Of a stretch of DNA of 64,000 nucleotides, positions 1,485 to 40,840 are shown piece after piece. Location: the NCBI GenBank assembly GCA_021816775.1, contig JAKAXA010000002.1:121113-185112 (forward strand), in the 5' to 3' direction. Made by a program: the position numbers and the translations under genes. The notes below the pieces were generated by a model that worked only from the letters and a program-made list of their open reading frames with translations, searched no databases and was not told the DNA's origin. This stretch comes from Pseudomonadota bacterium (lineage in GTDB: Bacteria; Pseudomonadota; Gammaproteobacteria; Steroidobacterales; Steroidobacteraceae). The stretch's first letter is position 1, and each line of letters begins with the position of its first letter.

Positions 1485-1580
1485 CTGCGTCACCCTATGT
1501 CCGACTTGCCACATGAGGCTGCAACGGCGCTGGCCTGCACGAGAGCCACCACAGCCCACCTCGGGCGCAATACTGACCGC

Positions 1581-4251: not shown

Positions 4252-5010
4252 TCAGCCGAGGCTGTATCCCATCTCGCGCGAGATATCGGCCGCCGCGCGC
4301 GTGAGTTCGTATCCGAGCTTCTGTAGGCGCTTTCCCAAAACGGTCTCTGGCGTCTCGGAAATGCTGAGCGCACCGACGAGCCGGCGATTGCGGCCGTAAA
4401 CCGGCGCGCCGAGCGCAGCAAGTCCGGGTATCATCTCTTCGCGCGCGATCGCATAACCGCGCTCCCGCGCCTCCTCGATATCCTTGCGAAGCGCAGCGCG
4501 ATTGGTGATTGTGCTCTTGGTGAGCGCCACAAGCTCGACGGTGCGCAAGTAATCGCCCAGCTCGGCAGGCGCCATATGGGCCAGAATCGCCTTGCCGATG
4601 GCCGAACAATAGGCTGGAGTGCGCGGACCGATCTGATGCGACAGGTAATCCTCCGAGCGCGGCACGGCAAGATGAGTGATCAGAACCGCGCCGTTGTCGA
4701 AGATGCCGATGCGCGCGGTCAGTCCGGTGCGCGCCGCCAGATTCTGCGCCAGGCGCGCCCCTTTGACATTGATCTCGAGATTGCCGATGTAGATCATGCC
4801 CAGCTCGAAAAGACGGGGTCCCACGCCGTATTTACGCGTGTCCGGATCTTGCTGCAGAAAGCCCTGCTGTTCGAGCGTCGTCACCAGCCCCCACGCCGTC
4901 CCCTTGTTCAGCCCCAGGGCAGCGGCGATCTCCGTCACACCGAGCCGCTGCGGCGATCGGCAAAAGAGGGAAATGATATCCGTCGCCCGCTGTACCGATT
5001 GGATGATCAT
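4252..5010 (-). CDS. IclR-family transcriptional regulator
   Basis: wHTH LGVTEIAAALGLNKGTAWGLVTTLEQQGFL plus an IclR-type effector domain (GIFDNGAVLITH...GLAALGAPVY). ATG 5010 was chosen; a TTG at 5121 is an alternative start but would overlap the upstream gene by 26 nt. Confidence 0.8.
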   Translation of the reverse strand: MIIQSVQRATDIISLFCRSPQRLGVTEIAAALGLNKGTAWGLVTTLEQQGFLQQDPDTRKYGVGPRLFELGMIYIGNLEINVKGARLAQNLAARTGLTARIGIFDNGAVLITHLAVPRSEDYLSHQIGPRTPAYCSAIGKAILAHMAPAELGDYLRTVELVALTKSTITNRAALRKDIEEARERGYAIAREEMIPGLAALGAPVYGRNRRLVGALSISETPETVLGKRLQKLGYELTRAAADISREMGYSLG

Positions 5011-5095: not shown

Positions 5096-6277
5096 TCATC
5101 GGGACGCCGCCCATGCTGCAACCTCCGCCACGGCGGCGATCGCCGCGTCTATTTCCTCTTCCGTATTGAAGGCACCAATGGAGAAACGCACGGTGCCACG
5201 CCGGGCCGCCGTACCGATCCGTTTGTGCGCGATAGGTGCGCATTGCAGGCCGGTGCGCGTGGCAATGTCGTGCTTGACGTCGAGCCTGAGGCCCGCGTCG
5301 GCCGCTTCCAGATCGCCGACATTGAGCGAAATCGTGGATATGTGGTCCTTCAGGCTGTCACAACAGTAGAGCCGGACAGCCGGGATTTCGCGAACCCCCT
5401 CGACAAAGCGCCGCGCCAGCCGCATCTCGCGGACGTGTATGTTCTCGAGTCCCTCGGAGTGCAGCCACTCCTGTCCGGCCCAAAGAGCGGCCACGCCCAG
5501 CATGTTGATCGTGCCGTACTCCAGCCGCCAGGGATATTCGGCGAGCTGATAGGGGTAATCGGAATTCACTCCGGTGCCGCCTGCGCGCACTTGGCGGATA
5601 TCCAGATGCTTGCGCACGCACAGCCCGCCGATGCCGGTGGCGCCCATCAGCGATTTGTGCCCCGTGAAAGCCAGCACGTCCACATGCATCGCCTTCATGT
5701 CGATCGGCACCATGCCCGCGGTCTGCGAAACGTCGAGCGCGAAGGGGATATCGCGCTCGCGGCAGATGCGACCGATTTGCGCCGCCGGCTGCACGGTTCC
5801 GATGACATTGGAGCCGTGATTAACGATGACGAGCCGCGTGTTCGGCCGAATGGCGCGCGCGATATCGTCCGGATCGACGAAACCCGCGCCGTCGAAAGGC
5901 ACGAACGTCGCCTGCACTCCGCCGTCGCGCACGAGGTGGTTGATCGGGCGGATTACTGAATTGTGCTCGAGCTCGGTCGTCACCACATGATCGCCCGCAC
6001 GCACCAGGCCGGGAATGATCAGGTTCAGCGCATCGGTGGCGTTGTAACCGAAGCACAGCCGTTCGGGCGCGTCATCATCCCCGCCGAAGAATCGGGTCAG
6101 GCGCAGGCGCAGCGCGTCGAGCAATCCCGCCGCCTCCATGCCGAGCTCGTGGCCGCTGCGCCCCGGGCTGACTCCGGTAGAGCGGTACGAATCGATCATA
6201 AAGCGGTAAACAGCTTCCGGCTTCGGCCAGGAGGTCGAGGCGTTGTCCAAATAGATCAGTTTCTGCCCTGCATCCAT
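5096..6277 (-). CDS. Class V aminotransferase, cysteine-desulfurase-family protein
   Basis: IYLDNASTSWPKPE N-terminus and PLP-lysine motif FTGHKSLMG. 393 aa. Lies 6 nt downstream of the dsrP-like stop. Confidence 0.8.
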   Translation of the reverse strand: MDAGQKLIYLDNASTSWPKPEAVYRFMIDSYRSTGVSPGRSGHELGMEAAGLLDALRLRLTRFFGGDDDAPERLCFGYNATDALNLIIPGLVRAGDHVVTTELEHNSVIRPINHLVRDGGVQATFVPFDGAGFVDPDDIARAIRPNTRLVIVNHGSNVIGTVQPAAQIGRICRERDIPFALDVSQTAGMVPIDMKAMHVDVLAFTGHKSLMGATGIGGLCVRKHLDIRQVRAGGTGVNSDYPYQLAEYPWRLEYGTINMLGVAALWAGQEWLHSEGLENIHVREMRLARRFVEGVREIPAVRLYCCDSLKDHISTISLNVGDLEAADAGLRLDVKHDIATRTGLQCAPIAHKRIGTAARRGTVRFSIGAFNTEEEIDAAIAAVAEVAAWAASR

Positions 6278-6282
6278 TTGGG

Positions 6283-7470
6283 TTAATTCCCTTCATCCGC
6301 GAGCGTTTCGGGCAGGAACGGCAGCAGTTTCAGAGCAAGGAGCGTGATGAGCACGGCGAGTGCGCAGCCGCCAAGACCGAGCGCGCACTCCGGAAGGCTC
6401 GGAGCGTAGTAGCCCACCACGCCGTCGTAGAAGGAACTCGAAACCTGCATGCCGGGGAAAATCGAAAGCGGCCATGCCTGACCGCCAATGACGACGTCGT
6501 ACACGAGGGCGAGTCCGCCCACCACGACCGAGACCGAGCCCCAGCCGACCGCGGCACGTGAGCGGCGCATCGGCGGCAGCCAGAAAAGCAACATCGGCAG
6601 CACGCCCCCCAGGAACACCGCGCCGAACCAGAAAAGCACCGTGTACGGGCCGCCGCGCCACAGGATAAAGGCCTCGGCGCCGGAGAACTTCGCCTCGTAG
6701 AGCTTGGTGAGGTGAAAGACCAGCAGAAAGTACAGCAGCCCGGCGGCGAAGGCGCCGAGCAGGTTCTTCAGGCGCATCAGCGTCTCGTCCCCCAAAGGTC
6801 GAGCGCCGGCGCGGCACGCCGCCATCAGCACCAGGATGAAGATCGCGAGCCCGAAGGCAAGGGACATCACGATGAACATCGGGGCCATGATCGCTTCGTC
6901 ATACGGCTGGCGCGCCACCAGAAGGCCGAAGATCGAGCCGGTGCCGGTAGTCAGGATCAGCCGCCATAGGAAGGCGACCGTGCCCACCATGCGGCTATGG
7001 CGGTTCAGGCGCTGTTCCATCATCACCCACAAATACCACCCGGTCACCGCGATGAAGCCGGTGTACAGCAAGATGTTCCAGGCGAAGATCGAGCGGAAAT
7101 TGTAGTGCGTCATCGCCACGCCCAACCGGTCCGGCCGCCCCAGATCGAGCACCAGGATGGCCAGCCCACCGATGAGCAGCGCAATCGCCAGCAGCCCGGA
7201 CAATCGCGCCAGCGGCTTGTACGCCACTCTGCCGAACACCGAGGCAATGGAGGCGGTATTGAGCGCCCCGGAGGCCGCGACGATCAGAAACACCGCAAAC
7301 ACGTGCGGCATCCCCCACACCACCTGATTGCTCATACCGGTGATGATGTGCCCAATATGCTCCATGAAATACGCCGCCGTCAGCCCGGCGGCCAGCAAGA
7401 GCGCCAGCAATCCCACCAGCGCCCAGAAGCCGCCGCTGCCGTCGATCTCGCGGTAATGGATCGCTCTCAT
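6283..7470 (-). CDS. dsrP: NrfD/PsrC-type integral membrane subunit, DsrP-like
   Basis: 395 aa and about 10 hydrophobic helices. 4-nt overlap with the dsrO-like stop. Sits in the dsrMKJOP gene order. Confidence 0.8.
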   Translation of the reverse strand: MRAIHYREIDGSGGFWALVGLLALLLAAGLTAAYFMEHIGHIITGMSNQVVWGMPHVFAVFLIVAASGALNTASIASVFGRVAYKPLARLSGLLAIALLIGGLAILVLDLGRPDRLGVAMTHYNFRSIFAWNILLYTGFIAVTGWYLWVMMEQRLNRHSRMVGTVAFLWRLILTTGTGSIFGLLVARQPYDEAIMAPMFIVMSLAFGLAIFILVLMAACRAGARPLGDETLMRLKNLLGAFAAGLLYFLLVFHLTKLYEAKFSGAEAFILWRGGPYTVLFWFGAVFLGGVLPMLLFWLPPMRRSRAAVGWGSVSVVVGGLALVYDVVIGGQAWPLSIFPGMQVSSSFYDGVVGYYAPSLPECALGLGGCALAVLITLLALKLLPFLPETLADEGN

Positions 7471-8231
7471 GGCAAGCCCTGATACTGCACGCCCGGATCG
7501 AGCATCAGATCGGCACGCAACTGCACCGAAGGAAACTCAGCCAGGGCACGACTGATCTCGCTCGCCGGGTCCTTCAGATCCCCGAAGGTCATCGCCCTGC
7601 CGCCCTCGTGCGCGCAAGCCTGGACGCACGCCGGCACCTGCCCCGCATCGATGCGGTCGACGCACAGCGTGCAGCCCTCCACCGTGCCCTTGCCGCGCGG
7701 CGCCCAGGGCTTCTGCCCGGAAATCTCCTCACTGACAAAGGAGCGCGCCTTGTACGGACAGGCCATCATGCAATAGCGGCAGCCGATGCAGATGTGCCGG
7801 TCCACCAGCACGATGCCGTCGGCGCGCTTGAACGAGGCGCCGGTCGGGCATACCTCCACGCACGGCGCCTTCGCGCAGTGCTGGCACATCACCGGCACCG
7901 AGCGCGACACACCGGTCTCGGGATCTGTTACCTGCACTTTGCGGATCCACTGTGGATCGGTGGGCCGCCCTTCGTTCTTCCAACCATTATACGAGGAGCA
8001 CGCCGTGACGCAGGCCGTGCAGGACGACTTGCACTTGGTGGTGTCGATCAGGAGACCCCAGCGAGTCCTCGCGCTCGCCCCCTGCTTCCTGCCCTGCCCT
8101 TCGGCAAACGCGAGCAGACTCACCCCCGGAGCCACCACCAGAGCGCTCAACGCCGCTGTGCCCAGGAAGCGCCGCCGGTCCTCATCCACCTCGTGCCCGG
8201 TTCCCCGAGGCGCCGCCGGCCTGCCGGTCAT
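7467..8231 (-). CDS. dsrO: Periplasmic (Tat) 4x[4Fe-4S] ferredoxin subunit, DsrO-like
   Basis: ORF trimmed to ATG 8231 (ATGA overlap with the dsrJ-like stop). Twin-arginine motif DRRRFLGTAALSAL, then Cys clusters CKSSCTACVTAC, CQHCAKAPCVEVCP and CIGCRYCMMACP. Confidence 0.8.
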   Translation of the reverse strand: MTGRPAAPRGTGHEVDEDRRRFLGTAALSALVVAPGVSLLAFAEGQGRKQGASARTRWGLLIDTTKCKSSCTACVTACSSYNGWKNEGRPTDPQWIRKVQVTDPETGVSRSVPVMCQHCAKAPCVEVCPTGASFKRADGIVLVDRHICIGCRYCMMACPYKARSFVSEEISGQKPWAPRGKGTVEGCTLCVDRIDAGQVPACVQACAHEGGRAMTFGDLKDPASEISRALAEFPSVQLRADLMLDPGVQYQGLP

Positions 8232-8758
8232 GGCCATCTCCACGGCGCCTCTCGGCGGCGCCGCGCCGTGGACGAGCCACCTGCAACTCGCGGCGGGACG
8301 ATGGCCGGATTGCCGATTGCCGCGAGCGCCACAAGTCGCGCCTCGCCGCCGGACTGAGCAACTGTCCCGGCGCCGGAACCCGGCCGGTTGCTGTGGCAGG
8401 AGAAGCAGTCGATGCGCACTCCGACATACTGATGGCAGGCATTGCAGAAGAACTTGCTGCTTGTCACCGACGGATACTTCCCATCCGCCAGCCTCGACAC
8501 GTGGCAGCTGATGCACCCGGGCAGACTCTCCTGCCTGTTACGGATGCCCTCATGCACCGCCTCGTACCGCACCCGCATCAACAGCTTCATGTGATTCTTG
8601 CGCATCCAAGCTACGGGCCGCACGCAATGCGCGCCTTTGGCCCGAGGAATGGCGGGCAAAGCGCTGCCCGTGTGCGCCACGGCCCCAAGCCAGAACGGTG
8701 CTGTCAGCAACAGGAGCAGCAGCGCCAACCCTGCGAGAATCACCGGGCGATCACGCAT
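8228..8758 (-). CDS. dsrJ: Triheme cytochrome c, DsrJ-like
   Basis: N-terminal signal anchor MRDRPVILAGLALLLLLLTAP. Exactly three CXXCH motifs (CISCH, CNACH, CFSCH). Confidence 0.8.
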   Translation of the reverse strand: MRDRPVILAGLALLLLLLTAPFWLGAVAHTGSALPAIPRAKGAHCVRPVAWMRKNHMKLLMRVRYEAVHEGIRNRQESLPGCISCHVSRLADGKYPSVTSSKFFCNACHQYVGVRIDCFSCHSNRPGSGAGTVAQSGGEARLVALAAIGNPAIVPPRVAGGSSTARRRREAPWRWP

Positions 8759-10361
8759 TCGCCGCCTCCTTCGCGAGCGGCTCGCCGCGCAGGTTGGTGG
8801 TGCGCTCCTTTGCGCCCTTCATCACCAGCGCGTTGCCGAGCAGCTCGTGCACGCCCGCCACCTGCACACCCGACACCCAGTAATCCATCAGCGTCGGCAG
8901 CGTCGCCTTGTCGATGGCGCAGATACAGGCGAGCAGGTTGACGCCGTGCGCCTCGCGCACGTGGCGCACGGCTTCGGCGCGGGGGAAGCCCCCACGCAGG
9001 CGCATTTCCAGGTTCTCGGTGTTGCCCAGCCCGGCGCCGCTGCCGCAGCAGAAGGTGAATTCTCGGATCGTCTTCGCCGGCATCTCGTGAAAGTGGTTGC
9101 AGGTGCGCTTGAGGACGTAGCGCGGCTCTTCCAGGAGCCCCATGGCGCGCGCGGGATTGCAGGAATCATGATAGGTGACGACGTATTCGTCGTTACGCGA
9201 AGGATCGAGCTTGATCTTCTCGTGATAGAGCAGGTCCGCGGTGAACTCGCAGATGTGCACCATCTTGGTGGAGGCAGCGTTCCCGAAGCGCGTACCGGTG
9301 AGCGGCGAGACGGGCACCTCCAGAAAGTCGGCGGGGCCGTTCATCGTGTCCATGTATTGATGCAGCACGCGCCACATGTGCCCGCATTCGCCGCCCAGGA
9401 TCCACTTGACGCCGAGGCGCTTCGCCTCCTCGTAGATCTTGGCATTCAGACGCTTCATCAGATCGTTGGAATGAAACAGACCGAAATTGCCGCCTTCCGA
9501 GGCATAGGCGCTCACCGTGAAATCGAGGCCGATCTCGTGGAACAGCATCATGTAGCCGAGCAGCGTGTAGTAGTGCGGCGTGGCGAAGTAGTCCGCCGAC
9601 GGCATCACAAACAGAATTTCCGCGCCCTTGCGGCTGATCGGGATCTCGACGTCGAGCCCGGTGAGCTCCCGCAGCTCGTCGCGGGCGAAGTCCAGGGCGT
9701 CTTTGAAGGCGTGGGGCGCAATGCCGAGATGGTTGCCGACCCGGTAGCAATTGGCCGCCGGCTCCGTGACCCAGTGCGTGCTCACGCCGATCAGGCTGAG
9801 CAGCTCACGGACGATCATGGTGATCTCGGCGGTGTCGATACCGAACGGACAATAGATCGAGCAGCGGCGGCATTCCGTGCACTGATAGAAGTAATAGAAC
9901 CACTCCTTGACCACGTCCTCGGTCAGCTCCCGAGCGCCCGCCAGCGAACCGAACAGTCGCCCGGAGAGCGTGAAATAGCGCCGGTAAACCGAGCGGATCA
10001 GCTCGGCGCGCGCAAATGGCATATTCTTGGGATCGCCGGAGCCGAGATAGAAATGGCACTTGTCGGCGCAGGCGCCACAGCGCACGCACACATCCATGAA
10101 CAGGCGGAAGGAGCGGTACTTGGCGAGCCGCTCCTGCATGCCGCGCAGAAGAATTCCCTTCCAGTCCGCCGGCAATTGCCAATCGAGGTCGGTAGGTTGC
10201 CATTTGCGCGGATTCGGCAGCCCGAGAGCAATCAGGTCCTTAGGCAGCGACGCGTTGCTGAACGTGCCCCGGCGCAACTCGACGTGTGCATCCCGCCAGT
10301 CGCCCTTCGGCGCGTTCAGCTCGATGTCGATGACGGGTTTATCGGACACGGTCGGCCTCAT
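8751..10361 (-). CDS. dsrK: HdrD-like Fe-S/CCG-domain subunit, DsrK-like
   Basis: Ferredoxin motifs CVRCGACADKC and CTECRRCSIYCP. CCG-type motifs YHDSCNPARAMG and FTFCCGSGAG. 536 aa. Confidence 0.85.
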   Translation of the reverse strand: MRPTVSDKPVIDIELNAPKGDWRDAHVELRRGTFSNASLPKDLIALGLPNPRKWQPTDLDWQLPADWKGILLRGMQERLAKYRSFRLFMDVCVRCGACADKCHFYLGSGDPKNMPFARAELIRSVYRRYFTLSGRLFGSLAGARELTEDVVKEWFYYFYQCTECRRCSIYCPFGIDTAEITMIVRELLSLIGVSTHWVTEPAANCYRVGNHLGIAPHAFKDALDFARDELRELTGLDVEIPISRKGAEILFVMPSADYFATPHYYTLLGYMMLFHEIGLDFTVSAYASEGGNFGLFHSNDLMKRLNAKIYEEAKRLGVKWILGGECGHMWRVLHQYMDTMNGPADFLEVPVSPLTGTRFGNAASTKMVHICEFTADLLYHEKIKLDPSRNDEYVVTYHDSCNPARAMGLLEEPRYVLKRTCNHFHEMPAKTIREFTFCCGSGAGLGNTENLEMRLRGGFPRAEAVRHVREAHGVNLLACICAIDKATLPTLMDYWVSGVQVAGVHELLGNALVMKGAKERTTNLRGEPLAKEAANA

Positions 10362-11343
10362 CGAGCGGCAGTCCGGCGAGTTTCAATTTGTCCGCGTTCG
10401 TGGCTTCCCATTCCGCATAAGTGTTGGTGGGCACGGGGCTGTTCCAGGGATTGATGTGGCGCACACGCCGACTGTTGTTGGCCAGATTGCGAGTCGGGCT
10501 GAGAAACACCCCGCCGAAATGCATCAGCTTCGAGAACGGTAAGTAGATCGCGAGGGTCGACACCAGCAGCAGATGGACCAGAAGCAGCGCACTCGGCGCC
10601 GCGGGAACCACCGGATGAAATGCCGTCAGAGCGAGTGCAAACTCCTTGACCGCCACGATGTTCACCGGCGCAACGTAACGCATGGCGATGCCCGACACAG
10701 CGATGCCGAGCAGCAGCAGCAACGCAAAATAATCGGTGAAGAGCGACATATAGCGCAGCAGCGGATTGACGAGCCGCCGACCCAGCAGGTAGATCAACGC
10801 CACGACGACGAGCACATCCGTGATGAGCAAAGCAGGTGCACCGATCCGCAGGAAGCCGTCGAGCGCATCGAGCGGCGGCACGAAGAACGGCGTCGGCAGA
10901 AGCACGAAGCGCAGGTGCCGCAAGAGAATTACGAGCAGCGACCAGTGCAGCACTAGTGATGCCAGCCACAGTAGACGCGCCTCGGAAAGCACGAGTCGCC
11001 CCGCCGCGACGTGCGTGCGGCTGTTGCGCAACAGCGAACGGAACACCAGCGCCTCGATCGCTACGCGGATCGCCGCCATGACCCTGTTGTCGGGATTATC
11101 GATGGGCGCGGTGCGAATCCAGGGGAGCGAGCGCTGCTGACCGCAGGTGGTGGGAATGCGATACGGCACCGGGCTCGCCGCCCACCACCAGACTCGCCAG
11201 GCGATCCCGACGCTGAGCGTGAGAAACGCAAAGTAGGGAAGCACCACGGTGATGGCGGCTGTGCCGCCCGGGACCGCGCCCGCAGATGCGCCGGCCATCG
11301 CGAGGAAAACAACGGCGGCAGCGGCGGCGATGAGCGCCTTCAT
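10339..11343 (-). CDS. dsrM: NarI-like dihaem b membrane subunit, DsrM-like
   Basis: 334 aa, five to six helices with conserved His (LVLHWSLL, LLVHLLLV), and a C-terminal cytoplasmic tail. Position immediately upstream of the dsrK-like gene. Confidence 0.75.
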   Translation of the reverse strand: MKALIAAAAAVVFLAMAGASAGAVPGGTAAITVVLPYFAFLTLSVGIAWRVWWWAASPVPYRIPTTCGQQRSLPWIRTAPIDNPDNRVMAAIRVAIEALVFRSLLRNSRTHVAAGRLVLSEARLLWLASLVLHWSLLVILLRHLRFVLLPTPFFVPPLDALDGFLRIGAPALLITDVLVVVALIYLLGRRLVNPLLRYMSLFTDYFALLLLLGIAVSGIAMRYVAPVNIVAVKEFALALTAFHPVVPAAPSALLLVHLLLVSTLAIYLPFSKLMHFGGVFLSPTRNLANNSRRVRHINPWNSPVPTNTYAEWEATNADKLKLAGLPLDEADRVR

Positions 11344-11807
11344 GCCGGCGCACCACCGCGCTGAACGGCGCGCCGGCGAGCGACGCCGATGGCACGAAGC
11401 TGCTCGTTCAGTCTGAGATCGGCGAGACGCTCACGGCAGGCGAGATATTGCGTGAAGGCCGAAATCGCGAGGCGGTCGATGCGCGCCTCGGTCTCGGCCG
11501 GCTGCATCTGCGGGGCCTCGTCACGCACGATACCGCGCAGCCGAAAGACGAATCCGACTGCGCGCTCCACCGAGAGGTCTTGGATCGCGCGCAGCGCCAT
11601 GATCTCGGCGAATGCCGCATCGATGGCGGCCTCATCCATCGCACCAAAGAACTCACGCACCAGTGCCGCGAGATTCCTGCGCAGTGCATGACCGATGGGA
11701 TTGAGGAAAGGATCGCGCTCGGTGAGCGTCCGCTCGGCAATCAGCCCGCCAAAGACCGTGGCCGCCGCGGCAAGCCAACGCTCCTCGACGGTGGCCCGCA
11801 CGGCCAT
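11340..11807 (-). CDS. Hypothetical 155-aa protein in the dsrT position (between dsrC and dsrM)
   Basis: ATGA stop/start overlap with the dsrM-like gene. High GC3. All-helical-looking sequence with no motif I can name. The DsrT assignment is positional only. Confidence 0.55.
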   Translation of the reverse strand: MAVRATVEERWLAAAATVFGGLIAERTLTERDPFLNPIGHALRRNLAALVREFFGAMDEAAIDAAFAEIMALRAIQDLSVERAVGFVFRLRGIVRDEAPQMQPAETEARIDRLAISAFTQYLACRERLADLRLNEQLRAIGVARRRAVQRGGAPA

Positions 11808-11812
11808 TGGTC

Positions 11813-12130
11813 CTACACGCAGCCGGTTGGCTTCGCGAGGCCTGCTACCTTGCAGGTGCCCTTGGCTGGGCCCGAGCGGAACAACTGATAGATGTGATCG
11901 AGGTCCATCTTGTTGTCGCGACAGACCTTGCGCACCATCGGCGCGACTCCGTACGAATAGAAATAATTGCGAATGTAGTTGATCAACTGCCAGTGCTCTG
12001 GGTTCAGTTCGGTGATTCCCTCAGTCAGCGCGAGGTCACGCGCGACGTCCTCGGTCCAGAGCTCCGGCTCCTGAAGGAACCCATCGTCGTCTACTTCGTA
12101 AGTGCGGTCTTCAACCTTGTAAGTGGGCAT
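11813..12130 (-). CDS. dsrC: DsrC (DsrC/TusE family with both redox-active C-terminal cysteines)
   Basis: 105 aa. C-terminus is GPAKGTCKVAGLAKPTGCV, the DsrC-type arm with CysB and penultimate CysA. GGGGAG lies 6 nt upstream of the ATG. Confidence 0.9.
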   Translation of the reverse strand: MPTYKVEDRTYEVDDDGFLQEPELWTEDVARDLALTEGITELNPEHWQLINYIRNYFYSYGVAPMVRKVCRDNKMDLDHIYQLFRSGPAKGTCKVAGLAKPTGCV

Positions 12131-12182
12131 TGCCGACTCCCCTCTGCCGAGACCCGTGTCTTATATGGTCACACTGTGTACG

Positions 12183-12210
12183 ATACTATCATTATGTCCT
12201 CGGGAGTCAA
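12183..12210 (-). promoter_or_regulatory. Candidate sigma70 promoter for the dsrC operon (TTGACT-N16-TAGTAT on minus strand)
   Basis: Read by eye on the minus strand: TTGACT is the reverse complement of 12205-12210 and TAGTAT of 12183-12188. About 55 nt upstream of the dsrC ATG, in the only AT-rich patch of the 350-bp intergenic region. Confidence 0.3.
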
Positions 12211-12479
12211 GACGACACGGGTGGTGCACGGCTGTGAGGGGATTCACGCATCCGCACAAGCATGGCCATGATCGAATCGGCACCCGCTGCCGGCTCAGCG
12301 AATCTTCTGGGCTCATACCGCATCATCCCCGCTGACCTCGCACCCGCGGCGATTGACGATTGTCATTGTTTTGCAGGCTGCACCGCCCGGCGGCTATAGC
12401 GGCTGGCGTACCGGTGTCTACGGCCGTTCTCAGCCCGCCAAGGCGGCCAAAGCGATGCCTCGGGCGAGTCGCGCGAATC

Positions 12480-13331
12480 CTAGTCGCCGCCTGCGCTTGC
12501 CGGTTCCAGCACAATGGCGCCCAGATCCATGTCGTGATGCGCACCGACGGCGATTTCCCTTGGCCGATAGCCCGGCGCGCAGATGCGCAGCACATAACTG
12601 GCACCCGCCTCGAGTGCCTCAAAGGCGAAATCGCCGTACGCATCGGTTACGCCATCGAGCGAGTTCGCTCCATCGTGAAGTGACACGCATACGCCGGCGG
12701 CGGGCTCGCTCATTCGGTCCGCGAAAGCGATCTCGCCCGAAACGAACCGCTTCGGCAGCCCGAGGTAGCGCACGGCGGGCTTCGCGTTGAACTGCGGATG
12801 CAGTTCCTCGGTCGCACGGCCCTTCAGCAGCTGTGAAATTCTGCTGGTCGGATCATCCAGATCGCCGAACACCAATGCCTCGGTCGGGCACGCTTCGACG
12901 CAGCGCGGCTCCTTCCAGCCCTGATCGAGCAGATGGGCACAGAAGGTGCATTTCTGGGCCACTCCCTCCGCTGCATTCCAATAGATCGCTTGGAACGGAC
13001 AGCAGGAGACGATCTCCGGGTGTCCCTTCGCCTTATCCGGATCGATGAGAATGATGCCGTCGTCCCGGCGATAGAGAGCGCCGTTAGGCGCGCGCGACAG
13101 GCAGGTGGCGTCCTTGCACTGCTGGCAGGGCAGCGCCACGTAATCCACCCGCACGCGCGGGAACTTGCCGCGCTCGTGCTCCAGGACGGTGATCCATTTG
13201 TGCCCGCTCTCGGGCTGCGGCGCGGCGATGGGGCGATGATCGTTGCCCACGTGCTCGTCGCGACAGGCGAGAAAGCAATTGTAGCAGCCCGTACAGCGAC
13301 TGACATCGATGACCATTCCGTACGTCGTCAT
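12480..13331 (-). CDS. Fe-S subunit of transhydroxylase/resorcinol-hydroxylase type (BthL-like)
   Basis: ORF trimmed to ATG 13331 (GGAG 6 nt upstream, 10 nt after the athL-like stop). MVIDVSRCTGCYNCFLACRDEH and further Cys clusters. C-terminal beta-rich domain (GVCVSLHDG...YGDFAFEALEAGASYVLRI) as in BthL. Confidence 0.85.
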   Translation of the reverse strand: MTTYGMVIDVSRCTGCYNCFLACRDEHVGNDHRPIAAPQPESGHKWITVLEHERGKFPRVRVDYVALPCQQCKDATCLSRAPNGALYRRDDGIILIDPDKAKGHPEIVSCCPFQAIYWNAAEGVAQKCTFCAHLLDQGWKEPRCVEACPTEALVFGDLDDPTSRISQLLKGRATEELHPQFNAKPAVRYLGLPKRFVSGEIAFADRMSEPAAGVCVSLHDGANSLDGVTDAYGDFAFEALEAGASYVLRICAPGYRPREIAVGAHHDMDLGAIVLEPASAGGD

Positions 13332-13341
13332 GACTTGCTCC

Positions 13342-15861
13342 TCAACCCATCCATTTCTCGACATCGATGAGGCACGAGTTCGAGGCCATGCCGGGCACGT
13401 TCTGCGACATCTGCCGCCCGGGGGTCAGCATGGCCACGCACCCGGCGCGGTCGGGCGAGCGCGGATTGCCCGGCTGCAGCGGGTCGTACTTGCCGGCCGA
13501 GGCATAGGAGTGCACGACGCCTGGGCGCACACGCTCGGTCACCTGGGCGATGCACAGAACCGAGGCGCGGTCGTTGTACAGGCGGATGATGTCGCCCGAG
13601 CGGATGTAGCGGGCGGTGGCGTCCTCAGGATGCAGCCGCGCCGGCCACCAGGCATGACCGTCCTTGACGATGCGGTGCACGGGCACGTCGTTGAGCCAGG
13701 CGGTGTGGCCGTCATAATGGGTGTGGAAAGTGAAGCGCGGATGGGGCGATATGAGCTGCAACGGATAGATTGTCGCCGCTTCGCAGCGATGCCCCTCCCA
13801 GCTCGGAATGTAGCGCGGCGAAACCGGCCGCTCCTCGTCCCGGGGCGCCATGCGGCGCAGGCTCTCGGAGGCGAATTCGATCTTCCCGCTCTCAGTGCCG
13901 AGTTCATTCGCCTTCGCGGTGGCGCGCTTAAAGTTGTTGGGATCGGGCGTATCGCAGGGCCGGCCTTCGGCGAACCAGCGCAACGCGGGGGTGGATTTGT
14001 AATCCTCCGGCACGTTGATGACGTAATAGCCCTTGCGGTCGAACTCCTCCCAGGAAATGTATTTCGGCAGATCGGAGATCTCGAAGAACTTGCGCGCCCA
14101 GTCCAGATCGCTGTTGCCTTCGGTGTAATCCGCATTGAAGCCCAGCTTCCCAGCTAGCTCGCTGAAGATCTGGTAGTCGGATTTCGATTCCCACAGCGGC
14201 TCGATCGCCTTCTTCAGCCGCACCACGACCCGATAGTTGCAGCCGCTGCTGCCGCCCTTGGTCTGGCCGCCCGGCTCGCCGAACTCGCCGATGTCGTCGC
14301 GCTCGAGCGAGGTGCACGCGGGCAGAATGATGTCCGCATGGGCGGTCTCGGTAGACCACCAGCAATCCTGATTGACCACGCATTCAAGCTTCGGGCTCTG
14401 ATACATGCGCACCCACTTGCTGGTGTCGGTCATGGTGCTCATGAACGAGCCGCCGTAGCGGTAAAACATCCTGACCTCGGAACAGCCCTCCATCGGATAG
14501 GTGAAGGGGATGAACTGCTGCTGGAAATTCCTGTTGCAGAACCCGACACCATTCCAGTGCACCGGCGGATCGAGAATCGCGTCCGGCAGGGTGAGGCGGT
14601 AGAGCTTCTGCGGCACCTTGTTCTCGGGAATCCTGCGCGCCACTTTGGTGGAGGTTGCAATGCGTCCCTCCAGGTCGCCGTAGCCTGGGAACCAGACCTT
14701 GCTGTTCCACGGCGCACCCATGCTGGTGCCCCAGATGGAAATACCCGGGTTGCCGAGCCCCTGCATCGCCTGCAGTAGCACCATGAGCCGCGCCCACTCG
14801 GTAGCATAGGCGCCGCGGCACGCCCCACCCTCGCCGCCGCGGCAGCCGGCTGAGAGCACCGTGCGCTTCGAGGCCCAGTCGCGCGCCAGCGCCACGATCT
14901 TGCGCGCCGGCACGGCCGATTCCGCCTCGGCCCAATTCGGCGTCTTGGGCACGCCATCTGTGACGCCTTTGACGTAATCGCGAAACTCATCGAAGCCGAC
15001 GGTCCGGTCGGCGACATATCGCTTGTCGTACGTGCCTTCGCTCACCCACACATAGGCAATGGCGAGCGCCACGGCGGCATCGGTACCCGGGCGCGGCGCC
15101 AGCCATTTCCCTTTCATTGCGGCCGCGGTGTAGTTGTAGAAGGGATCGACGAAAGTCATCGCCACACCCTTGTCCTTCAGCCACTGCCGCCAGATCGCCG
15201 CGTCGCTGCCGTCATAGACCGCACGGGTCGTATCCGGATCGTTCGACCAGAAAACGATCATCTCGGCATGCTGCAGAGCGTCTTCCAGCATGTCGTAGGG
15301 CTCGGGCATGCCGAGGCGCCAGATGAAACCGTAGGAATGCGTGGCGCCCCAGTGCCAGCCCTCCCAGCTGTCAGGGTTATCGAACACCTGGGTGTAGCCG
15401 AGGAAGTTGAAAAAGCGCGAGAAGGCACTCATTTTGTAGCCGACGAGGCCCCAATTGTGGTGCGATGAGGTCATGGCCGCGAGCGCCGAGGGGCCGTAGG
15501 TTGCCTGCACCCGCTGGATCTCGCTCGCGACGATGCTGAGCGCTTCCTCCCAGGAAATGCGCACATAGCCCGACTTGCCGCGGTTCTGCGGATTGCGCTC
15601 GCCGTTCGGATCGAAATCCACCCGCCTCATGGGGTAGCGAATGCGGTCATCCGAATAGAGCCGGTTGCGCTCGGCATGAACGTACGGCGCGAGCGTCACC
15701 TTCTTGGGCGGAGAGTAGGACTTGCCGTCGGCTTTGATGGTCCAGGGTGCGAGGTCGCCCTCCTCCATCACCAGCGGTCGCACGCGCACCACCCGGCCGT
15801 CCTTCACCTCGACGGTGATCGGTCCGCAATTGGTGCAACTGGTAAAGCTCTGTGTCGGCAC
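13342..15861 (-). CDS. AthL-like Mo-bisPGD hydroxylase/transhydroxylase large subunit, paralog C
   Basis: 839 aa. RIRYPMRRVDFDPNGERNPQNRGKSGYVRISWEEA, SSHHNWG, NPDSWEGWHWG, WSNDPDTT, ILPACTSLERDD, LISPHPRFTFHT; ends SCLIDVEKWMG. No Tat signal. Confidence 0.9.
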   Translation of the reverse strand: MPTQSFTSCTNCGPITVEVKDGRVVRVRPLVMEEGDLAPWTIKADGKSYSPPKKVTLAPYVHAERNRLYSDDRIRYPMRRVDFDPNGERNPQNRGKSGYVRISWEEALSIVASEIQRVQATYGPSALAAMTSSHHNWGLVGYKMSAFSRFFNFLGYTQVFDNPDSWEGWHWGATHSYGFIWRLGMPEPYDMLEDALQHAEMIVFWSNDPDTTRAVYDGSDAAIWRQWLKDKGVAMTFVDPFYNYTAAAMKGKWLAPRPGTDAAVALAIAYVWVSEGTYDKRYVADRTVGFDEFRDYVKGVTDGVPKTPNWAEAESAVPARKIVALARDWASKRTVLSAGCRGGEGGACRGAYATEWARLMVLLQAMQGLGNPGISIWGTSMGAPWNSKVWFPGYGDLEGRIATSTKVARRIPENKVPQKLYRLTLPDAILDPPVHWNGVGFCNRNFQQQFIPFTYPMEGCSEVRMFYRYGGSFMSTMTDTSKWVRMYQSPKLECVVNQDCWWSTETAHADIILPACTSLERDDIGEFGEPGGQTKGGSSGCNYRVVVRLKKAIEPLWESKSDYQIFSELAGKLGFNADYTEGNSDLDWARKFFEISDLPKYISWEEFDRKGYYVINVPEDYKSTPALRWFAEGRPCDTPDPNNFKRATAKANELGTESGKIEFASESLRRMAPRDEERPVSPRYIPSWEGHRCEAATIYPLQLISPHPRFTFHTHYDGHTAWLNDVPVHRIVKDGHAWWPARLHPEDATARYIRSGDIIRLYNDRASVLCIAQVTERVRPGVVHSYASAGKYDPLQPGNPRSPDRAGCVAMLTPGRQMSQNVPGMASNSCLIDVEKWMG

Positions 15862-16025: not shown

Positions 16026-19000
16026 ATGCGCTTTTCGCTGATCCTCTGGTGCCTGCCGTGGGTGCTCAGGCTCTATGCCCGGCGCTCTGCCAAGCTCCGC
16101 GCGCTGATGGCGGCACGCGATTTCACGGTCCAGATCATCGTCAAGGACGGCTCGCGCGGCCGCTGGCTGCGCTTTGAGGGAGGCAGACTGCTCTCCGGCG
16201 CGAGTGCGCGGGCTGACGCCGAGGTCACCCTGCGCTTCAAGTCGGCGGCACTCGGGACGCGCATTCTGACCCGCCTCACCTCCGGAATGTTCCACTTCGC
16301 CTGGCCAGTGCTGAAGCGCTTCCTCGAGCCGATGGAAGTAATCACTGCGGCGAAGAACTTCGCCTTCGAGGTACTCGGACCGGACGAACTTACCGTTCAG
16401 TTCACCGACATCCTGAACGCGATGATCACGCATGGCTGGCGCCAGGGCACGCCGGTCGGCAGCGGCGAGATCCGCTACGTCAACCAGACCAATGGCGGAC
16501 CGGTCTTCGTCTACGTGAAGGACGGCAGGATCGTGCGCATCACACCGATGGAATTCGCCGCCGATGATCCACAGCCCTGGGTCATCGAAGCACGCGGGCG
16601 GAAATTCTCACCGCCGCGGCGGGCGACGCTGAGTCCGCACGGCCTCGCCTCGAAATCGCTCGTCTACTCTCCCAAGCGCCTGCTCTATCCCATGAGGCGC
16701 GTGGACTGGGATCCGCAAGGCGAACGCAACCCCCAGAACCGCGGCAAGTCCGGCTATGTGCGCATCTCATGGGACGAGGCCCTCGACATCGCCGCCAGCG
16801 AGATCAAACGCGTCCGCCGCGAGCACGGCCACGGAGCCATCCTGGGCAGCCACGGTTCGCATCACACCTGGGGCAACATCGGCTATTACCTGAGCGCGCA
16901 GATCCGGTTCATGAACGCCATCGGCCATACCCGCATGGTGCTGAACCCAGACAGCTGGGAGGGGTGGTACTGGGGCGCGATGCATCACTACGGCAATTCG
17001 ATGCGAATGGGCGGCGCCGAGCCTTACGGCCAGCTCGAGGACGCACTGCAGCACGCCGAGCTGATCGTGTTCTGGTCATCTGATCCGGAATCGACCTGCG
17101 GCTCCTACGCGGCGTTCGAAGCCACCGTCCGCCGGCAATGGGCCAGGCAACTCGGAATTAAGATGGTGCACATCGACCCGTATCTGAACCCGACGGCGAA
17201 CTGGCTGGGCGGAAAGTGGATCGCGCCCGTGCCCGGCTCCAGCCCGGCGCTCGCCCACGCCATCGCTTACGTCTGGATCAGCGAAGGACTCTACGATCGC
17301 GAATACATCGAGAAGCGCACCACCGGCTTCGACAAATACCGCGCCTACATCATGGGCGAACGCGACGGGACGCCCAAATCACCTGAATGGCAGGCGCCGG
17401 AAACCGGCGTAGCCCCGCATATCGTGCGCGCCCTGGCCCGCGAATGGGGCCGCAAGAAGACCTATCTGTCCTGCGGCGGCAAGGGCGTGGCCTTCGGCGG
17501 CGCCAACCGCTCCGCCACCGGCGCGCAGTGGGCACGCGCCATGGTCTGTCTGATGACAATGCAGGGCCTCGGAAAGCCCGGGATCAATTTCGGCAATCTC
17601 GGCACGGGCGCTCCGGTCGATCTCGAATTCTATTTCCCGGGCTATGCCGAGGGCGGCATCTCCGGTGATGTGGAATGCACCGCCGATGCGGCGCAGAACT
17701 ATCAGCGCCTGCCGCACCTGATCAGCATGAACACCGTCACGCAGAAGGTGCCGCGCCTGCGGATTCCGGAAGCCATTCTGGATGGCAAAACGGAAGGCTA
17801 CCCCACTGACAGCCGTTCGCTCGAGGGCCAGTTCCAGAAGTTCAGCTACCCCTCGCCCGGCCACTCGCCGGTGCGCATGATGTACAAATACGGCGGCTCG
17901 CATTTCGGCACCACGATGGAAAGCGGTCGGCTGGCTGACGCTCTGCGCAGCGAGAACCTGGAGTTCGTGCTCAATCAGTCCATCTGGAACGAGGGCGAGG
18001 CACAGTTCGCCGACCTCATCCTCCCGGCCTGCACCAATTTCGAGCGCGCCGACATCAGCGAATGGGCAGGATCGGGCGGTTACGTTCATCACAATCACAA
18101 TCAGATGAACCACCGCGTCATCACGCTGCAGCACAAATGCATCGAGCCACTCGGCGAATCAAAATCGGACTTTCAGATCTTCCTGGAGCTTGCCAAGCGT
18201 CTCGGCCTCAGCTCCTACTTCGGCGAGGGCAAGACGGAATTGCTCTGGTGCCACGAGATTTACCTCAGCTCCGATCTGCCGAAGGCGATTTCCTGGAGGA
18301 AGCTCCTGCGCAAGGGCTATTACGTGGTACCGCCGGAAACCAACGCCGCGAACCGCACCAAGACGAGCTGGCGGTGGTTCGCCGAAGGCCGCAAGAAGGA
18401 CGTGCCCGAACCCGCGCCTCTTCCCGCCGAATATGGCGGCGAGTATCTCGACGGATTGCAGACGCAATCGGGCCTGTTCGAGTTCGAGTCCTCCAGCCTC
18501 GAGCGCTACGGCGAGGATCCGGAGCGCCCGCCGCTCAACATCTATATCCCTGCCTGGGAAGGCCGGCAGACGGGGGCGCTCTACGCACGCTACCCGCTGC
18601 AGCTGATCTCTCCTCACCCGCGTTTCAGCTTCCACACCCAGACCGACGGCAAGGACGGAGTGCTTAACGACATCACCGATCACCGCGTGCTGCGGGATGG
18701 TCACTATTATTGGATCGCACGGCTCAATCCCGCCGACGCACGCGCCCGTGGCATCGCACAGCACGACCTGATCAAGTTGTACAACGACCGCGGCGCGGTG
18801 ATCTGCGCCGCCGTGCTGACCGAGCGGCTCCTGGCCGGCGTCGTGCACGCGTACAGCTCCTCGGCGGAATATCAACCGGTAGGCGAGGCCGGCGCCACCG
18901 CGGACATCGGCGGCTGCATCAACGTCCTGACGTCTAAGCGCCATATGACGGAGAAGACCTCGGCCTGCGCCCCCAACTCCTGCCTGATTGAGATCGAAAA

Positions 19001-19028
19001 GTGGCACCCCGAAGGAGCTGGCCCATGA
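16026..19028 (+). CDS. AthL-like large subunit, paralog D, with about 145-aa N-terminal extension (hydrophobic helix + SCP2-like domain)
   Basis: ORF 15852..19028 trimmed to the first ATG clear of the divergent gene. Residues about 146-1000: GGPVFVYVKDGRIVRITPMEF, GSHHTWG, NPDSWEGWYWG, FYFPGYAEGGISGD, ILPACTNFERADISEW, LISPHPRFSFHT, CLIEIEKW. The start codon is uncertain: there is no clear SD, and ATG 16422 is an alternative. Confidence 0.85.
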   Translation: MRFSLILWCLPWVLRLYARRSAKLRALMAARDFTVQIIVKDGSRGRWLRFEGGRLLSGASARADAEVTLRFKSAALGTRILTRLTSGMFHFAWPVLKRFLEPMEVITAAKNFAFEVLGPDELTVQFTDILNAMITHGWRQGTPVGSGEIRYVNQTNGGPVFVYVKDGRIVRITPMEFAADDPQPWVIEARGRKFSPPRRATLSPHGLASKSLVYSPKRLLYPMRRVDWDPQGERNPQNRGKSGYVRISWDEALDIAASEIKRVRREHGHGAILGSHGSHHTWGNIGYYLSAQIRFMNAIGHTRMVLNPDSWEGWYWGAMHHYGNSMRMGGAEPYGQLEDALQHAELIVFWSSDPESTCGSYAAFEATVRRQWARQLGIKMVHIDPYLNPTANWLGGKWIAPVPGSSPALAHAIAYVWISEGLYDREYIEKRTTGFDKYRAYIMGERDGTPKSPEWQAPETGVAPHIVRALAREWGRKKTYLSCGGKGVAFGGANRSATGAQWARAMVCLMTMQGLGKPGINFGNLGTGAPVDLEFYFPGYAEGGISGDVECTADAAQNYQRLPHLISMNTVTQKVPRLRIPEAILDGKTEGYPTDSRSLEGQFQKFSYPSPGHSPVRMMYKYGGSHFGTTMESGRLADALRSENLEFVLNQSIWNEGEAQFADLILPACTNFERADISEWAGSGGYVHHNHNQMNHRVITLQHKCIEPLGESKSDFQIFLELAKRLGLSSYFGEGKTELLWCHEIYLSSDLPKAISWRKLLRKGYYVVPPETNAANRTKTSWRWFAEGRKKDVPEPAPLPAEYGGEYLDGLQTQSGLFEFESSSLERYGEDPERPPLNIYIPAWEGRQTGALYARYPLQLISPHPRFSFHTQTDGKDGVLNDITDHRVLRDGHYYWIARLNPADARARGIAQHDLIKLYNDRGAVICAAVLTERLLAGVVHAYSSSAEYQPVGEAGATADIGGCINVLTSKRHMTEKTSACAPNSCLIEIEKWHPEGAGP

Positions 19029-19873
19029 AGAAGTGGAATCTCGTGATCGATGTTGCCGAGTGCCACAACTGCAACAATTGCTTTCTCGCCGTCAAGGACG
19101 AATATGTCGGCAATGACATTCCGGGCTACTGCGCGGCCCAGCCGTCGCACGGCCACAGATGGATCAACATCCTGAGCCGGGAACGGGGGCGAGCACCGAT
19201 GGTCGATGCCGCACACGTGCCCACTACCTGCAACCATTGCGATGCCGCGCCCTGCATCGCCGCAGGCAGAGGCGCGGTAAAGAAGCGGCCGGACGGGATC
19301 GTGCTGATCGAACCCGAGGCGGCGAAGGGCCGCAAGGACCTCGTAACCGCGTGCCCCTATGGGGCGATCTGGTGGAATGAGGAACGCTCACTCCCCCAGG
19401 CCTGGCCGTTCGATGCCCATCTGCTCGATCGCGGCTGGCCGGCTCCGCGCCCCGTGCAGTCCTGCCCGACGGGGGCGATCCGGGCGCTGAAGGTGAGCGA
19501 CACCGAAATGACGCAGATGGCGCGCGCGCAGGAGCTGCAAACCCTGCGGCCGGAGCTGGGCACGAGGCCACGGGTCTATTACCGGAACCTGCATCGTTAT
19601 ACGCATCTCTTTGCCGGCGGCACGGTGCTCGGCGCCAAGGGCGGCGTCATCGATTGCCTGGCGGGCGCGCGCCTCGAGCTGCTCAACAGCGGGCGTGTAA
19701 TCGCGGCGACCGAGACCGACACTTTCGGGGACTTCAAATTCGACCGACTGGCACCCGACAGCGGCGCCTACGAGATCCGCGCCACTCACACGGATCATCG
19801 TCCGGTCTCGGTGCAGTTCGAAGTACACCGGGCGAGCGCCGTGCTGGAAGATATCCTGCTCGAATCGGCGTAG
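19025..19873 (+). CDS. BthL-like Fe-S subunit partner of paralog D
   Basis: ATGA overlap with the upstream stop. MKKWNLVIDVAECHNCNNCFLAVKDEYVGND and further Cys clusters. C-terminal beta domain (FGDFKFDRLAPDSGAYEIRA). Confidence 0.9.
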   Translation: MKKWNLVIDVAECHNCNNCFLAVKDEYVGNDIPGYCAAQPSHGHRWINILSRERGRAPMVDAAHVPTTCNHCDAAPCIAAGRGAVKKRPDGIVLIEPEAAKGRKDLVTACPYGAIWWNEERSLPQAWPFDAHLLDRGWPAPRPVQSCPTGAIRALKVSDTEMTQMARAQELQTLRPELGTRPRVYYRNLHRYTHLFAGGTVLGAKGGVIDCLAGARLELLNSGRVIAATETDTFGDFKFDRLAPDSGAYEIRATHTDHRPVSVQFEVHRASAVLEDILLESA

Positions 19874-40414: not shown

Positions 40415-40826
40415 GGTCACACCGGTGCAGTTTCCGTGGCACGGGAATGTCGCCTCGGCGCTGGTGCGCATCTTGGAAGCTCCCGCAAGGGCCTGGTACA
40501 GGAGTGCACGAAAGGCCATGTGCTGATTTGCCGCGCCGCGGGCCGAAAGTATGACAATTGTCGTCTTTTCGTTGGACGCCGTTTATCCAAGTAGCCTTCT
40601 TGTGGCATCTCGCTTTCCGATCCGCTCAACGGACTTTCCAAGGCCCTGTCGCAACGAGAGACGTAAACCGCGCTGGCACAGCAGAAGCTCGCAAGCCGCG
40701 CAGATCCACGCGGAAACGTTCGTGCCGCTGCCCAATAGCACATGAACCGCCCGCAAACGGTATCGCGTCTCACTTCGAACCGGCCCCCCGCAACAGCACC
40801 CAGAATCGCTTGCATCAGTCTATTCT

Positions 40827-40840
40827 GGTATTATAATACC
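40827..40840. promoter_or_regulatory. Operator-like perfect palindrome GGTATTATAATACC
   Basis: Read directly from the sequence. About 85 nt upstream of ATG 40926, in the divergent region between the ALDH-pseudogene/paaK unit and the 2-oxoacid oxidoreductase operon. Contains TATAAT on both strands. Confidence 0.6.

Follow-up and report, generated by a model that had tools for sequence, protein, structure and literature searches.

Which enzyme does DsrC work with in a locus that carries dsrMKJOP and no dsrAB? The question is raised by a 64,000-nucleotide stretch from a Pseudomonadota bacterium of the family Steroidobacteraceae (GenBank assembly GCA_021816775.1, contig JAKAXA010000002.1; this whole stretch is called the window), in which dsrC, dsrT and dsrMKJOP are followed by genes for a cysteine desulfurase, an IclR-family regulator and AthLA, a divergent molybdoenzyme of the AthL family. 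On comparative grounds, we suggest that dsrC-dsrT-dsrMKJOP-desulfurase and iclR-athLA(-bthL) make up a single functional module, co-regulated and horizontally mobile, in which AthLA replaced DsrAB as the partner of DsrC, a reading to which we assign a probability of about 0.5.

The dsr genes of the window

Genes were assigned from a listing of open reading frames (ORFs), from Pfam and NCBIfam profile searches and from motif reading. On the minus strand, dsrC, dsrT, dsrM, dsrK, dsrJ, dsrO, dsrP and the cysteine desulfurase gene lie close-packed in one direction from 12130 to 5096, all where the initial annotation of this DNA had placed them, and they are followed 3′ by iclR, athLA and a second copy of athLA that is cut by the window edge:

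11813-12130, minus strand: DsrC (PF04358, 112.7 bits; C-terminus GTCKVAGLAKPTGCV with both redox cysteines)
11340-11807, minus strand: DsrT-like protein of 155 residues with an RsbRD_N domain (PF14361, 33.6 against a cut-off of 24.3; ATGA overlap with dsrM)
10339-11343, minus strand: DsrM, NarI-like membrane cytochrome b (NF038037, 405 bits against a cut-off of 300)
8751-10361, minus strand: DsrK, HdrD-like catalytic subunit (NF045796, 703 bits against a cut-off of 400; CCG at residue 438)
8228-8758, minus strand: DsrJ, triheme cytochrome c (three CXXCH motifs; NF038038, 72 bits against a cut-off of 100)
7467-8237, minus strand: DsrO, periplasmic iron-sulfur (FeS) subunit (NF045797, 292 bits against a cut-off of 200; RRRF twin-arginine motif)
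6283-7470, minus strand: DsrP-like membrane subunit of the NrfD family (Pfam NrfD; DsrP equivalog 66 bits against a cut-off of 350)
5096-6277, minus strand: cysteine desulfurase (TIGR01977, 394 bits against a cut-off of 377)
4252-5010, minus strand: IclR-family regulator, between the desulfurase gene and athLA
1581-4199, minus strand: AthLA, a divergent AthL-family bis-molybdopterin guanine dinucleotide molybdoenzyme of 872 residues (429 bits to 4v4c_A)
1-1484, minus strand: second AthLA copy, N-terminal 494 codons, cut at the window edge (bases 1-1412 are 100% identical to 2716-4127)

DsrM, DsrK and DsrO pass their equivalog cut-offs; DsrJ and DsrP miss theirs and are putative assignments, with which their motifs, the NrfD match and the gene order agree. 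The DsrO start was placed at about 8237, where the longest ORF would reach 8516. DsrC keeps both C-terminal cysteines, present in 70 of 70 aligned homologs, and the whole C-terminal arm, and the alignment of these 70 homologs revealed no clade-specific DsrC residues. The desulfurase gene lies 6 nt from dsrP, and its product, a predicted desulfurase, has the pyridoxal phosphate lysine (GHK) and the catalytic cysteine (GLQCAP). Searches by tblastn with verified DsrA, DsrB and DsrL queries gave no match in the window, Pfam searches of about 45 window genes found no apr, sat, sox or dsrEFH genes, and no sulfur genes occur across 52 kb on one side of dsrC. The initial annotation had thus correctly described all of these genes as missing from the 64 kb. 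No canonical twin-arginine motif was found by regular expression and by eye in the AthL proteins or in the molybdenum (Mo) enzyme at 53876, in line with its statement that the Mo enzymes lack such signals.

Recurrence and descent of the module

A DsrK scan of GTDB species representatives yielded 80 loci, which were mapped by tblastn. Further loci came from a metagenome scan with AthLA (L088 and L114) and from exact-protein look-ups (L167/L168, L173 and the P0074 locus). In 57 of the 80 loci, dsrA-dsrB(-dsrL) lies directly upstream of dsrC-dsrT-dsrMKJOP. Among loci of the DsrK clade described below that have at least 7.6 kb of upstream sequence, dsrAB was detected by tblastn in 0 of 6, compared with 57 of 57 informative relatives outside the clade. 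In each of the 15 nonclade loci where dsrAB was not visible, the upstream sequence is shorter than 5 kb; every nonclade locus with at least 5 kb has dsrAB. The dsrAB-less group, with upstream flanks of 7.6 to 10 kb (L007, L008, L009, L010, L014, L019 and L030), shows either CysDes-IclR-AthLA-BthL downstream of dsrP (CysDes being the cysteine desulfurase) or AthL genes upstream of dsrC.

Altogether, the module was found in at least 13 loci, distributed over Pseudomonadota, Desulfuromonadales-type and Acidobacteriota metagenome-assembled genomes (MAGs), with carriers labeled as Steroidobacteraceae, "Alphaproteobacteria", Geobacter/Desulfuromonadales, "delta proteobacterium" and Acidobacteriaceae MAGs. 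The dsr genes, the desulfurase gene and athLA are all in view in nine loci (the window, L009, L010, L014, L019, L030, L088, L167 and L173). The P0074 locus has the identical gene set, read from called genes only; in L007 and L008 the contig ends before the desulfurase gene, and L114 shows IclR-AthLA only. The desulfurase is present in every module locus in which that region is visible and in 0 of the 57 dsrAB-linked loci. The genes of L019 and L173 run athLA-bthL-dsrC-dsrT-dsrMKJOP-cysDes, separated by small gaps, and in the P0074 locus, which has no bthL, athLA abuts dsrC in an otherwise similar row that ends with the desulfurase gene. In these three loci athLA(-bthL) occupies the exact slot that dsrAB-dsrL holds in the relatives. 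A differently composed locus, L018, lies on a 3.8-Mb contig of an Acidobacteriaceae MAG and has clade-type DsrT-DsrMKJOP; in the 10 kb to each side of it, genes for DsrC, the desulfurase, AthLA and DsrAB are all missing. L018 may be a remnant that is decaying or is wired in another way.

In a neighbor-joining (NJ) tree of 82 DsrK sequences, all module-linked DsrK proteins and that of L018 form one clade (bootstrap 99/100), which is nested in the dsrAB-linked DsrK of Terriglobales/Acidobacteriaceae; identity between the module DsrK and the acidobacterial dsrAB-linked DsrK is 72 to 78%. The identity matrices of DsrK, DsrM, DsrC, the desulfurase, IclR and AthLA contain three common subclades (Steroidobacteraceae-like, delta-type and Acidobacteriaceae). 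Because these six proteins recover the same three subclades, the module appears to move as a unit. Of the six, AthLA shows the strongest conservation, with 77 to 93% identity across phyla. As judged from these sequence comparisons, the dsrAB-less dsrC-dsrT-dsrMKJOP-desulfurase module is shown to be monophyletic and to have been transferred between phyla with AthLA. The initial annotation had called for a neighborhood survey of athL and dsr genes and for a DsrK phylogeny: the linkage recurs beyond this genome, in at least 13 loci and three phyla, and the DsrK of the module loci falls in a clade of its own (99/100) inside dsrAB-linked acidobacterial DsrK. The DsrJ, DsrO and DsrP proteins of the Steroidobacteraceae-like subclade (6283-8758 in the window) share just 33 to 40% identity with those of the other module carriers, and its DsrP is of a divergent type that forms a separate similarity family, whereas DsrM and DsrK remain close. 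The DsrJOP half may have been swapped in this subclade, or it may be evolving fast.

Upstream of iclR in seven loci we found a TTGACA/-10-like promoter followed by a palindrome close to TMTGAYATTATCATAC. A position weight matrix (PWM) was trained solely on six iclR-proximal sites, and whole loci were scanned on both strands. Top-ranked matches fell 38 to 62 nt upstream of dsrC (rank 1 in L007, L008 and L009, rank 2 in L167 and rank 3 in L088 and the window). In the window, these elements are:

12158-12173, minus strand: operator-like palindrome TGTGACCATATAAGAC, 43 nt upstream of dsrC (PWM score 17.1 bits)
12183-12210, minus strand: sigma-70-like promoter match TTGACT-16-TAGTAT just upstream of the operator, a consensus match only

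The window palindrome ranks third of about 128,000 positions. No match of at least 17 bits occurs in 72 dsrAB-type control loci (1.24 Mb), and 20 shuffles of the window gave one. A generic promoter and terminator scan of the window did not rise above chance. These data point to a common predicted operator for the dsr operon and iclR.

AthLA as the candidate partner of DsrC

Besides athLA, the window holds AthL/BthL gene pairs on both strands. The initial annotation had noted two AthL-like genes downstream of iclR, and both were found, one complete (1581-4199) and one cut by the window edge (1-1484); to these and to the pair upstream of dsrC, our analysis added a third AthL/BthL pair on the plus strand:

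12480-13331, minus strand: BthL1, FeS beta subunit (a variable flank together with AthL1)
13342-15861, minus strand: AthL1, close to pyrogallol-phloroglucinol transhydroxylase (PF21423; 864 bits to 4v4c_A; Tyr404 kept)
16026-19028, plus strand: AthL2, transhydroxylase-like (PF21423; 946 bits to 4v4c_A; N-terminal extension of 157 residues)
19025-19873, plus strand: BthL2, FeS beta subunit that pairs with AthL2

AthL1/BthL1 was considered as the conserved partner and rejected, as the pair is missing in L005 and most related loci; none lies upstream of dsrC in L005, L009, L030 or L167. L005, which comes from another sample, has a dsr operon (DsrK included), desulfurase and IclR identical to those of the window. 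Its positions 1-3700 carry an alpha/beta hydrolase and an amino-acid permease in place of BthL1/AthL1, where the window runs on from 12389, and this sequence is absent from the window; the difference reflects either a strain-level rearrangement or a chimeric assembly.

AthLA is retained with the module, and its dsr linkage follows its sequence type. Homologs with at least 76.6% identity to AthLA share a ten-residue signature, YHYWSNSADC, which includes Cys556. Homologs with 73% identity or less lack Cys556, often lie in clusters of several AthL paralogs and were never seen linked to dsr genes, long flanks included. AthLA is encoded without BthL in two loci. Conserved AthLA is thus the candidate partner of the Dsr module, with a partnership, physical contact included, that we infer at the probability given above for the whole reading. 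The functional tie between Dsr and AthL proteins proposed in the initial annotation has gained cluster conservation in three phyla, a separate DsrK clade, replacement of the dsrAB slot and a predicted shared operator, while the partner it pointed to, AthL1/BthL1, gives way to AthLA.

Compared with the Pelobacter acidigallici AthL/BthL transhydroxylase (PDB 4v4c), AthLA aligns over its full length (429 bits), keeps the Ser175 Mo-ligand motif (NPDSW) and the equivalents of His144 and Asp174, as do AthL1 and AthL2, and is usually accompanied by an FeS subunit of the BthL type whose C-terminal domain is CarboxypepD_reg-like. Unlike that enzyme, AthLA has its own signature with Cys556 and the DsrC/DsrMKJOP linkage, and it lacks Trp354 and the loop bearing Tyr404. 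It is far more distant from the 4v4c enzyme than are AthL1 (864 bits) and AthL2 (946 bits), both of which keep the FPGY(404) loop. Tyr404 is reportedly an active-site residue of the transhydroxylase (Messerschmidt et al. 2004). Because the loop is deleted, the transhydroxylase name should be withheld from AthLA; it may apply to AthL1 and AthL2. PF21423 matches in AthLA homologs, taken from precomputed results only, are faint or weak in several.

In the scheme we propose, the module would have arisen from an acidobacterial sulfite-reduction cluster, dsrAB-dsrL-dsrC-dsrT-dsrMKJOP, that lost dsrAB and dsrL, with AthLA taking their place as the cytoplasmic enzyme working with DsrC. The substrate of AthLA would be an imported phenolic compound of the trihydroxybenzene/phloroglucinol network. 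Two reducing equivalents would be exchanged between AthLA and the DsrC dithiol, and DsrK, DsrM and the rest of the complex would recycle DsrC against the quinone pool. The desulfurase would probably load sulfane sulfur on DsrC, giving a persulfide or trisulfide form handled by DsrK. As to the direction of electron flow, the "hydroxylation outlet" of the initial annotation has no more support than a reductive role, toward which we lean slightly: electrons would pass from quinol to DsrMK, DsrC and AthLA, and an oxygen or hydroxyl group would be removed. The reductive direction is favored because the module descends from a reductive system, whose ancestral direction may have been kept, because the replaced slot is that of the terminal reductase, because a CoA-disulfide reductase (CoADR)-type partner of related enzymes works in the reducing direction, and because AthLA can occur without an FeS subunit. 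Enzymes of the BisC type are thiol- or NADPH-dependent and have no FeS subunit.

A broader proposal, which we put forward tentatively and consider rather doubtful, is that DsrC/DsrMKJOP is a general thiol-based respiratory module, used here for the quinol-dependent, energy-conserving reduction (for example, dehydroxylation) of plant polyphenols by an AthL-type enzyme. This would be a new anaerobic respiration created by a swap of the terminal reductase in a sulfite-respiration operon.

Several points weigh against AthLA as the partner of DsrC. The weakest part of the account is the universally kept desulfurase, which a plain dithiol/disulfide shuttle does not explain. The relatives of AthLA that have been characterized include no reductase: one is a redox-neutral transhydroxylase, and the others are oxidative hydroxylases. 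The BthL FeS subunit encoded in most loci suggests ordinary FeS electron transfer for which DsrC is not needed. L018 has the DsrT-DsrMKJOP of the clade without its DsrC, desulfurase and AthLA; in L169, an athLA gene that has the signature (77% identity) has neither bthL nor dsr genes within 10 kb of it. The window's own operator match upstream of iclR is weak (9.7 bits), and a second family of AT-rich palindromes in the window also scores with the PWM. The case for the partnership is comparative, the trees are of the NJ type only, and the absence of dsrAB in the carriers is known at the level of the loci.

Two other explanations are kept alive because the desulfurase most simply supplies sulfane sulfur to DsrC. 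In the first, a sulfur relay that the initial annotation had also raised and that we regard as unlikely, persulfide from the desulfurase would be carried by DsrC, in the manner of TusE, to AthLA, where it would sulfurate the Mo center or persulfidate Cys556, with DsrMKJOP only resetting misoxidized DsrC. The strict association of the desulfurase with the module speaks for this relay, as do its membership in TIGR01977, the clade-specific Cys556 of AthLA and the rhodanese domain, a sulfane carrier, that recurs beside a sister subgroup of AthLA. The TIGR01977 family has been connected with the labile S/Se ligands found in Mo hydroxylases; NifS-like molybdenum cofactor sulfurases and FdhD/IscS are precedents for such a transfer. 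However, a five-subunit quinone-linked complex with a periplasmic cytochrome exceeds the needs of maturation, yet it is intact in every module locus seen, and DsrC keeps the second cysteine that is missing in TusE-type carriers. Moreover, we know of no Ser-ligated enzyme of the AthL branch that needs a sulfido ligand.

The second explanation, which also seems improbable to us, dispenses with a redox partnership of AthLA: desulfurase, DsrC and DsrMKJOP would form a self-contained system that reduces or oxidizes a cysteine-derived persulfide or trisulfide against the quinone pool, for detoxification of reactive sulfur or quinone-thiol stress or for energy metabolism, and would merely be co-regulated with polyphenol catabolism. 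With its gene 6 nt from dsrP, the desulfurase could supply the sole known kind of DsrC substrate without DsrAB. The CoADR-rhodanese enzymes encoded beside sister AthLA genes resemble persulfide reductases, whose role is to cope with reactive sulfur species, and a TauE/SafE exporter gene lies beside the module in L010. That exporter, however, occurs in one locus only, and the explanation leaves aside why, in three loci, athLA takes the dsrAB slot within the operon itself, in one of them with no bthL alongside, and why one narrow AthLA clade only is linked to dsr genes.

It is very unlikely that these are ordinary Dsr pathways, with dsrAB elsewhere in the genomes and an accidental AthL neighborhood in a catabolic island: although the carriers are all MAGs or metagenome contigs surveyed at the level of loci, and Dsr proteins in "DsrAB-less" assemblies are ascribed in the literature to incompleteness (PMC8477390), dsrAB is immediately upstream of dsrC in 57/57 informative relatives and 0/6 clade loci, the clade is monophyletic with the same nonsulfur partners in three phyla, desulfurase, IclR and AthLA were gained together with the loss of dsrAB, the predicted shared operator is specific to the clade, and the 52 kb on one side of the window dsrC hold no sulfur genes.

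The AthLA-linked module can be set against several known systems. It shares with the DsrAB-DsrC-DsrMKJOP system, in its acidobacterial order, a two-cysteine DsrC, DsrT, DsrM, DsrK, DsrO and the putative DsrJ and DsrP, with one common gene order; it differs in lacking dsrA, dsrB and dsrL, both in the locus and within 52 kb, in the added desulfurase, IclR and AthL-family Mo enzyme, and, in the subclade of the window, in its divergent DsrJOP. With HdrDE, TmcB and HmcF (175 bits for the window DsrK against TmcB and 143 bits against HmcF), the module shares the coupling of a cytoplasmic thiol/disulfide carrier to quinones through an HdrD-like CCG protein that sits on a membrane cytochrome b. It differs in using a protein, DsrC, as this carrier and in having a molybdoenzyme as the proposed upstream enzyme, in place of a methyltransferase or reductase system. 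The cytoplasmic S- and N-oxide reductases of the BisC, DorA and TorA branch are the second-best family for AthLA, likewise single-subunit, Ser-ligated and without an FeS cluster of its own; unlike them, AthLA scores 358 bits against a TIGR00509 cut-off of 1017 and groups with AthL proteins. E. coli BisC reportedly needs a small thioredoxin-like protein. To our knowledge, the gene clusters of the resorcinol hydroxylase RhLS (Aromatoleum/Thauera) have not been reported with dsr genes. AthLA is assigned to the same family as RhLS and the membrane-associated anaerobic hydroxylases of Aromatoleum/Thauera and shares their setting of anaerobic aromatic degradation. RhLS-type enzymes are cytoplasmic and Ser-ligated (PMC10100899).

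DsrABCMK has been described as the minimal set in all Dsr organisms, and Dsr proteins in DsrAB-free assemblies have been treated as false positives or incompleteness (PMC8477390; PMC10504309); DsrA and DsrB of that set (PMC8477390) are absent from the 64-kb window. In the literature searched, we found nothing linking DsrMKJOP or DsrC to AthL-type enzymes or a desulfurase, nothing on the lack of dsrAB, and nothing relevant on dsrC in Steroidobacteraceae. The DsrAB-free, AthLA-linked module is, as far as we found, a so far undescribed use of the Dsr machinery. DsrC and DsrMKJOP are regarded as obligate companions of DsrAB and serve as markers of dissimilatory sulfur metabolism, and a conserved, mobile, DsrAB-free version would mislead the annotation of MAGs from soil, peat and wastewater. 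If AthLA is the partner, it would be a second kind of partner enzyme for DsrC, and the module would be a concrete candidate for the electron partner that has long been missing for the AthL/RhL-type enzymes of anaerobic phenol transformation, with a bearing on polyphenol turnover in anoxic soils.

Neighboring genes and further observations

Apart from the genes above, the window contains a class I benzoyl-CoA reductase-like gene set, a phenylglyoxylate-oxidoreductase-like operon, a PaaK-like ligase and a further Mo oxidoreductase, and is an anaerobic aromatic-degradation island. Other loci have related surroundings. In L167 an MhpT-like aromatic-acid symporter gene follows bthL, and genes of the anaerobic phloroglucinol pathway (short-chain dehydrogenase/reductase (SDR)-type reductase, "cyclase" family cyclohydrolase, 3HCDH and BKACE) lie near the module in L019, L167 and L172; the pathway gene set is that of PMC10470551. 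These genes were rejected as part of the module core, since they are near only some loci, and serve as context. In L172, 5149-12383 is a complete phloroglucinol operon (SDR reductase, BKACE, 3HCDH, cupin and cyclase) joined to an AthL1-type/BthL pair, which supports the view that AthL1-type proteins are probably true transhydroxylases feeding the phloroglucinol pathway.

In a sister AthLA subgroup (about 65% identity), a gene for a CoA-disulfide-reductase-like flavoprotein with a C-terminal rhodanese domain lies downstream in six loci. It follows AthLA-BthL homologs in L099, L101, L102, L103, L107 and L109, often with a class II aldolase-family gene next, and GH3-like, nitroreductase and amidohydrolase_2 genes occur nearby. 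The CoADR-rhodanese neighbor is, on gene context, a putative second and independent tie of the AthL branch to thiol/persulfide reduction. A sulfite or sulfonate link through the TauE/SafE gene of L010 was dropped, as it is seen in one locus only.

Genes for B12-binding or plain radical SAM proteins recur beside AthLA/BthL, both dsr-linked and dsr-free:

L088, 12317-13969: radical SAM gene
L014, 11346-12989: radical SAM gene
L010, 11102-12106: radical SAM gene
L030, 17333-17857: radical SAM gene
L171, 7072-8679: radical SAM gene
L120, L122 group: radical SAM genes

The B12-radical-SAM gene was rejected as a member of the Dsr module because it accompanies dsr-free AthLA homologs and thus belongs with AthLA/BthL; in this branch of Mo enzymes, the radical SAM proteins could act as maturases or as enzymatic partners.

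The second AT-rich palindrome family of the window (GGTATTATAATACC-like) was found at 40824-40843, 46658-46677, 53836-53851 and 58622-58641. Its sites precede the phenylglyoxylate-oxidoreductase-like operon and the Mo oxidoreductase gene at 53876 or are close to further genes of aromatic pathways, and they may serve a different regulator of the island as its operator. Rfam and tRNA scans of the window gave no matches.

The N-terminal extension of AthL2 (16026-16496) has a hydrophobic start and no Pfam match and precedes an AthL-like first domain; the longest AthL2 ORF, from 15852, overlaps the start of the divergent AthL1 gene. The tandem athLA genes share a 1,412-nt identical stretch with divergence on both sides, which looks like a recent partial duplication or gene conversion, and the second copy has Leu at the clade-signature Tyr20. 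Six MEGAHIT contigs with the same DsrK terminate exactly 141 nt (k = 141) inside this athLA repeat.

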